Part shown: one piece after another, positions 42,846 to 43,361 of the stretch | Layout: every line of letters starts with the position of its first letter | Numbering within the stretch: the stretch's first letter is position 1 | Source: Fidelibacterota bacterium | GTDB lineage: Bacteria; Fidelibacterota; UBA8477; JABMPR01 | Reading direction: 5' to 3' | Assembly: GCA_021734255.1 (NCBI GenBank) | Contig: JAIPJM010000004.1 | Location: 65,345-129,344 of the forward strand | DNA: 64,000 nt | Translations under genes and position numbers: made by a program | The notes under the pieces: model-generated | Databases searched by the model: none | The model's input: the letters and a program-made list of their open reading frames with translations, nothing else | Told to the model about the DNA's origin: nothing

Positions 42846-43361
42846 ATGAACAGGATTTTAATAACCACATTAATACTTGTCGCCAGTATGGGAAATGCGA
42901 AGGCTATGGACCTGACTGGAAAACCAGCACCAGACTTCACGCTGAAAGATGAAGAAGGAATAGCACATACCCTCTCAGATTACCTGGGACAAGATGTCGT
43001 TGTATATTTCTATCCCAAAGACGATACCCCTGGCTGAATTAAAGAGGCCTGTAGTATACGGGATGATTATGAGTCATATTCAGAAAAAAATATCAAGGTA
43101 TTTGGGATCAGTTATGATAGCATTGAATCACATCGCAAATTCAAAGAGAAGCATCAGCTGTCATTCACATTGCTGTCCGACTCGGACAAACAGGTCAGTA
43201 GGTTATATGGCACTTATGGCTGGGTCGTAGCAAAACGAAAGACCTTTCTCATTAACAAGGAGGGTGTGATATTCAAAGTGTATGAGTCGGTGGATGTGAA
43301 TAGCCACGGAAGTGAGATTTTGGAAGATTTTGAGGATTATTATGAGACTGATAAACCGTAA
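42846..43361 (+). CDS. bcp: Bcp-type peroxiredoxin (AhpC/TSA family) with in-frame TGA at the peroxidatic Cys position. Candidate selenoprotein, or a nonsense pseudogene.
   Basis: The reading frame is continuous across TGA at 43035-43037: FYPKDDTPG-[TGA][12 protein letters not shown]...LLSDSDKQVSRLYG...KKTFLINKEGVIFKVY, colinear with Bcp ([15 protein letters not shown]). A small hairpin (ccugua-gua-uacggg) lies 13 nt downstream. The ORF track splits this into 42846..43037 and 43170..43361. Confidence 0.6.

Follow-up and report, generated by a model that had tools for sequence, protein, structure and literature searches.

The subject of this report is a gene for a Bcp/PrxQ-type peroxiredoxin (Prx) whose reading frame contains an internal UGA codon. 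It lies in a 64-kb stretch of DNA (contig JAIPJM010000004.1 of GenBank assembly GCA_021734255.1; hereafter, the window) from a metagenome-assembled genome (MAG) of Marinimicrobia (Fidelibacterota), an abundant, almost wholly uncultured phylum of ocean and sediment. Its homologs likewise carried the names Candidatus Marinimicrobia, Neomarinimicrobiota or Fidelibacterota. In the list of open reading frames (ORFs), the gene appeared as two pieces, 42846..43037 and 43170..43361, which belong to one frame. Translation of the complete coding sequence (CDS) met a single internal stop, a TGA at codon 64, located at the position of the peroxidatic cysteine (Cp) and followed by a small RNA hairpin (Table 1). 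These features suggest that the UGA is decoded as selenocysteine (Sec).

We placed a cysteine at the stop and compared the resulting protein with family models. It matched the Pfam domain AhpC-TSA (PF00578) at 9.4e-40, covering profile positions 2 to 121 out of 124; its matches to the PrxQ/Bcp models of NCBIfam ranged from 1e-35 to 1e-37. Its scores fell short of the equivalog cut-offs (128.8 vs. 260 bits for NF053650 and 121.2 vs. 140 for NF006960). By sequence, the predicted protein is thus a member of the Bcp/PrxQ family and an equivalog of neither model. The best solved structure was the Bcp 3DRN (6.6e-33), in which the stop lay opposite the (mutated) peroxidatic residue and the alignment ran colinearly across it. 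Aligned with 17 homologs, the protein has its stop in a column where every full-length sequence has Cys, and it keeps each of the 26 columns that are invariant 3' of the stop. Among these columns were C69, the same in all 18 aligned sequences, and R131, which we take to be catalytic. The active-site motif PxxxTxxC(U) was present as P57-K-D-D-T61-P-G-U64. An earlier note on this DNA, made from the sequence alone, had placed the UGA exactly at Cp, with the resolving Cys retained five residues on and a conserved 3' half in the same frame; the alignment, the 3DRN comparison and the selection analysis described below bear out all three. A single base change can create a stop in this gene in 84 ways, of which only 1 affects the Cp codon, so the position of the stop is unlikely to be due to chance. 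TGA also serves as the ordinary terminator for 11 of 40 window ORFs; global reassignment of TGA was ruled out on this ground, and the standard code applies.

Public databases store the gene in fragmented form; the earlier note had likewise described a split into two pieces. Contig JAIPGY010000100.1 (GCA_021735485.1) is 100% identical to window positions 39865-48542. The NCBI annotation gives two CDSs, a 63-amino-acid 'redoxin domain-containing protein' and a 107-amino-acid 'peroxiredoxin', the latter beginning at the ATT directly after the TGA. The identical two fragments are stored under three NCBI accession pairs, including MCF7807504.1/MCF7807505.1, making a one-off assembly error unlikely.

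In the first protein searches, the closest full-length relatives (≤66% identity) were all Cys forms and none carried Sec, and a query with the C-terminal fragment returned no additional fragments. A scan of genome contigs found Sec forms solely at ~50% identity. In a neighbour-joining tree, the window protein was the lone Sec candidate within a group of over 100 Cys forms, indicating a Cys/Sec switch separate from that of an oceanic Marinimicrobia clade described below. From these results, the window gene looked like a singleton. A query with the 63-amino-acid N-terminal fragment, however, returned other fragments of 62 or 63 residues (P0137 to P0140). The contigs of these fragments, syntenic loci from four other runs, carried TGA at codon 64: L152 (DRR337555), L153 (SRR13374099, with an intact frame of 169 codons), L154 (SRR8074309) and L155 (SRR4342130, with an intact frame of 171 codons). 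We counted these as three sister lineages (L152, L153 and L154/L155), the frame past the UGA being checked where the contig continues. The shared gene order comprises genes for 344 and 173 amino acids on the minus strand, the Bcp gene, a gene for 155-162 amino acids, a YgjP-like gene and a 513-amino-acid regulator. The neighbour proteins of L152-L155 are 70-89% identical to those of the window, closer than those of the Cys ortholog L142.

We then compared the window gene with L153. The 105 codons after the UGA showed 79% amino acid identity, with pN 0.12, pS 0.71 and dN/dS ~0.06; the mature part before the UGA showed 86% identity, with pN 0.095, pS 0.695 and dN/dS 0.05. Synonymous sites between the window and the sister lineages are saturated, and an intact frame with so low a dN/dS over such synonymous divergence effectively excludes both a pseudogene and a sequence error. 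The earlier note had proposed looking for orthologs in the form of decayed pseudogenes; none was found, the orthologs keeping both the TGA and an intact ORF. At the Cp codon, the syntenic ortholog L142/L143 (P0002, Guaymas sediment) has TGC, and the outgroup relatives L141 and L142 both have TGY; the syntenic partial contig L004 ends before this codon and is uninformative. The locus represents a clean natural Cys/Sec switch between syntenic orthologs.

The earlier note also reported a hairpin, CCUGUA-GUA-UACGGG, 13 nucleotides after the UGA. We recovered it at that place: its first base lies 10 nucleotides after the last base of the UGA, which is 13 nucleotides counted from the U. In a 120-nucleotide context, its six pairs had probabilities of 0.76-0.98, and the RNAalifold consensus of the window, L152, L153, L155 and L065 was exactly this 6-bp stem. 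At pair 18-24, the U-A of the window group corresponds to a compensatory C-G in L065; L065 and L114, both with this C-G pair, have the hairpin in the same register as the window. All 11 codons following the UGA are identical in the window, L152 and L153, vs. 48% of same-amino-acid codons elsewhere in the gene (P ~3e-4). When the region was recoded synonymously at the codon usage of the window, only 1.5% of recodings reached an equally stable local fold, and only 4.7% gave an equally good hairpin obeying the loop and spacing rules of a selenocysteine insertion sequence (SECIS). The stem depends on AUA and CGG, both rare (12% of Ile and 15% of Arg codons, respectively). For the same peptide, EACSIRDDY, the Cys relatives L141 and L142 use ATT (which breaks U18-A24), AGC (which removes the loop U) or CGT, and the distant syntenic Cys ortholog L142 lacks the hairpin. 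The loop U arises by a synonymous AGC-to-AGT difference relative to L141. At this locus, the codons for the conserved active-site peptide already provide a proto-SECIS, which two synonymous changes complete.

We compared the hairpin with the bacterial SECIS (bSECIS) constraints of the bSECISearch consensus, as given in PMC13188914. The loop has 3 nucleotides (range 3-9) and the upper stem 6 bp (range 4-16). The loop sequence G-U-A has the G expected in the first two loop positions and the G/U that usually follows. The spacing from the UGA to the apical loop is 16 nucleotides (43038-43053), the minimum of the range 16-37.

Table 1 Features of the probable Sec-Bcp gene and its immediate surroundings (positions in the window)
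Feature	Position	Strand	Remarks
Two conserved divergent neighbours, 344 and 174 amino acids	40958..42564	-	No Pfam match; define the syntenic block
GGAG Shine-Dalgarno-like motif, 8 nucleotides before the ATG	42834..42837	+	Inferred by reading the sequence
Complete CDS of the probable Sec-Bcp/PrxQ	42846..43361	+	171 codons through the UGA, then TAA at 43359-43361
Putative signal peptide, codons 1-20	42846..42905	+	n-h-c layout and A-x-A site, by eye
UGA codon 64 at the Cp position, probably read as Sec	43035..43037	+	Alignment, 3DRN and syntenic orthologs
11-codon block constrained at the RNA level	43038..43070	+	Nucleotides identical in the window, L152 and L153
Candidate bacterial SECIS hairpin, 6-bp stem CCUGUA/UACGGG	43048..43062	+	Loop GUA at 43054-43056
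Resolving Cys codon C69	43050..43052	+	5 residues past Sec, inside the 5' arm of the hairpin
Conserved active-site Arg codon R131	43236..43238	+	Invariant alignment column
Conserved downstream gene, 159 amino acids	43342..43821	+	No Pfam match, no Cys; syntenic in all orthologous loci

Several results weigh against Sec decoding at this locus. The minimum free energy was -5.7 kcal/mol (nucleotides 1-40 after the UGA, 37 °C, the hairpin being the sole structure formed), short of the bSECIS limit of ≤ -7.5 kcal/mol. Dinucleotide shuffling of the 66 nucleotides after the UGA gave no significant result (z = -0.68), and the minimum free energy of a 54-nucleotide region was not unusual under synonymous recoding (p = 0.14). 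The Cys relative L150 (P0023; GCA_013202895.1, JABMPR010000155.1), with the sequence GCA TGT AGT ATA CGT G, has all six pairs and the GUA loop in a weaker form, and the hairpin alone is therefore not diagnostic. In the ortholog L155, different codons give an alternative 4-bp hairpin at a spacing of 14 nucleotides. Rfam returned no relevant match, either for the whole window at the gathering threshold or for positions 42950-43150 at E ≤10. Finally, neither the 64-kb window nor the fetched loci (~850 kb) yielded selA, selB, selD or tRNA-Sec: the E. coli proteins SelA, SelB and SelD had no tblastn match in either set, ARAGORN detected no tRNA at all in the window and, among 40 loci, none for Sec, and Pfam scans of the 59 window ORFs besides Bcp revealed no selenium-related gene.

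For the isolated 15-nucleotide hairpin, the calculated energy fell from -4.4 kcal/mol at 37 °C to -7.9 at 10 °C and -8.7 at 4 °C, and the region including a second downstream hairpin folds to -8.0 to -8.4 kcal/mol. Other conserved Sec genes of Marinimicrobia also miss the -7.5 cut-off (L011, -4.3; L012, -6.6), which is thus probably set too strictly for a lineage with this moderate GC content. The stable SECIS-like structure envisaged in the earlier note thus holds in part: the element is evolutionarily constrained, and taken alone it is weak (z = -0.68, -5.7 kcal/mol). A lower stem, CUGAAU/AUUCAG, was considered and is not claimed, given the non-significant shuffling and recoding results. As for L150, its hairpin may be a proto-SECIS, by which the gene is pre-adapted to Sec, or else the relic of an ancestor that used Sec.

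Next, we looked at related genes beyond this locus. Metagenomic DNA matched the pattern PK[DA]DTPG-TGA-xx-EAC at least 120 times, and all the matches listed read through into full Bcp ORFs. Most of those listed carried GCG UGC GGG UUC CGC GAC; their synonymous positions are frozen, and the loop, G-U-U, lies 1 nucleotide farther from the UGA than that of the window. Among the soil and aquatic Sec-Bcp sequences (L021-L140), the variants UCG UUY CGA, UCC UUY CGG and GAG UUU CGC were also seen, with hairpin registers shifted by 1-2 nucleotides. Judged from these sequences, the predicted SECIS of the Sec-Bcp family is plastic in position. The local folding energy of positions 10-36 averaged -10.3 kcal/mol in 119 Sec forms vs. 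-2.9 in 11 Cys forms (p = 8e-7), a comparison confounded by GC content. A 14-member all-Sec clade, made up of the Marinimicrobia MAGs L011, L012 and L014 and 11 metagenome contigs, showed a dN/dS of 0.07-0.14 after the UGA. Purifying selection beyond the UGA in this clade indicates that UGA decoding operates in the phylum. The window gene resembles the clade in phylum, Sec position, signal-like N-terminus and a short hairpin with a GU loop. It differs in being ~50% identical and non-syntenic, and the hairpin of the clade, UUGCGG-GUU-CCGCGA, is shifted by 1 nucleotide. A second lone Sec form among Cys forms, L092 (Ga0208879_1002033), is sister to P0121 and has a weak hairpin (-4.1 kcal/mol).

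Three SAR406 single-cell genomes have been reported to carry an 'orphan' SelD (PMC5029168). A literature search for selenocysteine under the names Marinimicrobia, SAR406, Marinisomatota and Fidelibacterota turned up the 'orphan SelD' table but no paper that stated Sec use directly. The present data indicate Sec decoding in a phylum that was earlier listed with 'orphan' SelD alone. The orthologs and many relatives of the window gene are likewise stored in public MAGs as two unrelated short CDSs, which conceals the selenoprotein and understates selenium use in Marinimicrobia/Fidelibacterota. In addition, the fragments P0141 and P0161 (53 and 67 amino acids, ending in ...FFPKAETPG) belong to a Marinimicrobia Bcp N-terminal cluster found on 11 and 168 contigs, respectively. 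They are annotated as 'redoxin domain-containing protein' and are abundant in ocean metagenomes; the DNA pattern, with its K[DA]D, would miss them. Presumably, these are further mis-split Sec-Bcp genes.

We weighed four other explanations for the internal TGA. The nonsense mutation of an ordinary Cys-Bcp, with a downstream frame that has not yet decayed, would require one base change from TGT or TGC, and the relatives L142 and L141 do carry Cys. The failure of the first genome and protein searches to find a closer Sec relative, and a hairpin that is weak and partly pre-existing in L150, would also fit such a pseudogene. However, the TGA is common to at least three syntenic sister lineages, whose frame is intact at a dN/dS of ~0.06 despite saturated synonymous sites. 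The complete retention of invariant residues after the stop, the frozen synonymous sites over the hairpin and the 1-in-84 placement on Cp point the same way, and we consider a pseudogene very unlikely. A spurious TGA produced by sequencing or assembly in one MAG is a natural concern with a metagenome-assembled source, particularly as L001, being 100% identical to the window, adds no independent sequence. The same fragments nevertheless occur in three NCBI accession pairs, and the same TGA occurs in diverged orthologs from four other runs, leaving such an error hardly credible.

The enzyme could also be assembled from two separately translated polypeptides of 63 and 107 amino acids, as the two CDSs in the NCBI and gene-caller annotations would imply. 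The first in-frame start past the TGA, however, is the TTG at 43170, at which the CR and half of the fold would be lost, and the annotated second CDS begins at ATT; either version would lack the catalytic residue, so that a split enzyme has almost nothing to recommend it. Read-through of the UGA to a residue other than Sec, for example by a near-cognate Cys or Trp tRNA stimulated by the hairpin, would suit a genome without a Sec pathway. It agrees with the lack of observed Sec machinery in the window and the fetched loci, and with a hairpin smaller than a classical SECIS that misses -7.5 kcal/mol. Yet Sec/Cys exchange is documented at this very position of the family (PMC9312934, PMC2398784, PMC1794560), the loop G-U is typical of a SelB-bound SECIS and lies at the standard distance, and SAR406 single-cell genomes carry SelD (PMC5029168). 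Moreover, for Cys a TGY codon would do, as in the outgroup, and other window ORFs end normally at TGA. We regard non-Sec read-through as improbable, if somewhat less so than the other three.

Overall, we conclude that this is most probably a genuine Sec-encoding Bcp/PrxQ gene, with a probability of roughly 0.9. The remaining doubt consists mainly of non-Sec read-through, or of a lineage-wide oddity should the Sec machinery be absent. From what is known of the family, we infer that the inserted residue would be Sec and that SelB would bind the hairpin, and likewise the catalytic cycle and export. The product would be an atypical 2-Cys Bcp/PrxQ peroxiredoxin with Sec in place of the peroxidatic Cys. 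When a ribosome reaches the UGA at codon 64, the hairpin 10 nucleotides on, with its 6-bp stem and G-U-A loop, would recruit SelB carrying Sec-tRNA(Sec); Sec would be inserted, and 107 further codons would be translated. In catalysis, the selenolate would attack the peroxide to give a selenenic acid, Cys69 would resolve this to a selenenylsulfide, and a thiol reductant would then reduce the enzyme.

The N-terminus of the protein resembles a signal peptide, as the earlier note had remarked; by eye, it has an n-h-c layout with an A-x-A site. Over codons 1-20 the frame is open, and the dN/dS of 0.24 between L152 and L153 corresponds to moderate purifying selection. The signal-like segment suggests that the enzyme may be exported. 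In the orthologs L153, L155, P0001 and P0002, the hydrophobic segment ends in a lipobox-like G-C (SIGC, TMGC, SFGC and SLGC); the window has G-N followed by A-K-A at this point, and L152 has G-Y. The family seems to alternate between predicted lipoprotein-type and signal peptidase I-type signals. Met21 (MDLTG) is conserved in the Sec clade and is a possible alternative, cytoplasmic start.

A more far-reaching version of the proposal would have the SelB of Marinimicrobia recognise a minimal SECIS: 15 nucleotides with a 6-bp stem and a G-U-N triloop, lying 10-11 nucleotides after the UGA, below the energy cut-off and made up almost wholly of the conserved codons for E-A-C-x-x-R-D. The product would be an exported or lipid-anchored periplasmic seleno-peroxiredoxin. 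We put this combined proposal forward as speculative and rather unlikely. If true, Bcp genes would be 'pre-adapted' for repeated Cys-to-Sec switching, and the 'orphan SelD' SAR406 genomes would be reclassified as Sec decoders.

Further observations concern the neighbourhood of the gene. The ATG of the downstream 159-amino-acid gene, whose product has a signal-like N-terminus, overlaps the 3' end of Bcp by 20 nucleotides (43342-43361). The overlap suggests translational coupling, for which ribosomes would have to get past the UGA. The Cys ortholog L142 has 15 nucleotides between Bcp and the downstream gene. Positions 28823-40841 and 48908-50350 hold a cluster resembling type II secretion or type IV pilus genes, which encodes T2SSF, two T2SSE ATPases, a cNMP-binding protein, LysM/PilO-like proteins and a secretin; a response regulator, a prepilin peptidase and an Hpt-like ORF lie farther on. 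The block from this cluster up to Bcp is syntenic in L142 and L154.

Positions 1-27179 contain a cluster for beta-glucan/cellulose utilisation. It encodes a histidine kinase, a sigma-54 response regulator, two SSF symporters, a TonB-dependent receptor and PorV; also present are T9SS-sorted GH16 (two copies) and a CBM9 protein, a GH5-CBM6 protein, a GH94 phosphorylase and a GH9 protein. At the other end of the window, a sugar-nucleotide/polysaccharide cluster (55.7-64 kb) has small ORFs in its intergenic gaps (56944-57312, 59125-59481, 60629-60988 and 63298-63639). One encodes a 23S_rRNA_IVP four-helix-bundle protein (9e-31), and three encode GIY-YIG-domain paralogs that are mutually 75-81% identical. 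These small ORFs look like repeated selfish or mobile genes among lipopolysaccharide genes.

Finally, we compared the window gene with known systems. The closest parallel is 'Peroxiredoxin (Prx), COG1225 (Bcp), TxxU', an established bacterial selenoprotein family (PMC9312934; PMC13188914). The statement of the earlier note that Sec replaces Cys at the peroxidatic position of some peroxiredoxins agrees with the listing of this TxxU family (PMC9312934). Prx ranked sixth in abundance among the selenoprotein families of GOS, where 253 forms had Sec and 7,348 had Cys (PMC2398784), and five independent Cys-to-Sec conversions have been inferred in it (PMC1794560). The window gene shares with this family the domain, the motif PxxxTxxU with Sec at Cp, many Cys homologs and a candidate SECIS located immediately 3' of the UGA within the CDS. 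It differs in its signal-like N-terminal extension and in a minimal 15-nucleotide hairpin 1 nucleotide nearer to the UGA than in the majority form. Marinimicrobia/Fidelibacterota were not named among the Sec users in the papers that we searched.

PrxU of Eubacterium acidaminophilum, experimentally shown to be a Sec-containing peroxiredoxin (Sohling et al. 2001, cited in PMC9312934), likewise has Sec at the peroxidatic position. The window protein scored 61.3 bits against the cut-off of 270 of the PrxU model NF040737; it is of the Bcp/PrxQ type, with Cp-x4-CR, and no PrxU ortholog. Bcp1 of Sulfolobus solfataricus (3DRN, 6.6e-33) and Bcp of Xanthomonas campestris (3GKK etc., 2.6e-18) have the same active-site signature and are colinear over residues 25-162, but are cytoplasmic Cys enzymes without a UGA or a signal peptide. 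The SECIS of E. coli fdhF and the consensus bSECIS (Zhang and Gladyshev 2005, per PMC13188914) are likewise stem-loops after the UGA, with G-U in a small apical loop and a spacing of 16-37 nucleotides; in comparison, the window hairpin has a 6-bp stem, no convincing lower stem, -5.7 vs. -7.5 kcal/mol and the minimum spacing. The finding is of value for the repair of annotation, for adding Marinimicrobia to the users of Sec and as a neat case of synonymous changes completing a proto-SECIS; what is known of bacterial selenoproteins in general stays as it was. The locus is another member of the documented Prx selenoprotein pattern and involves no novel mechanism.

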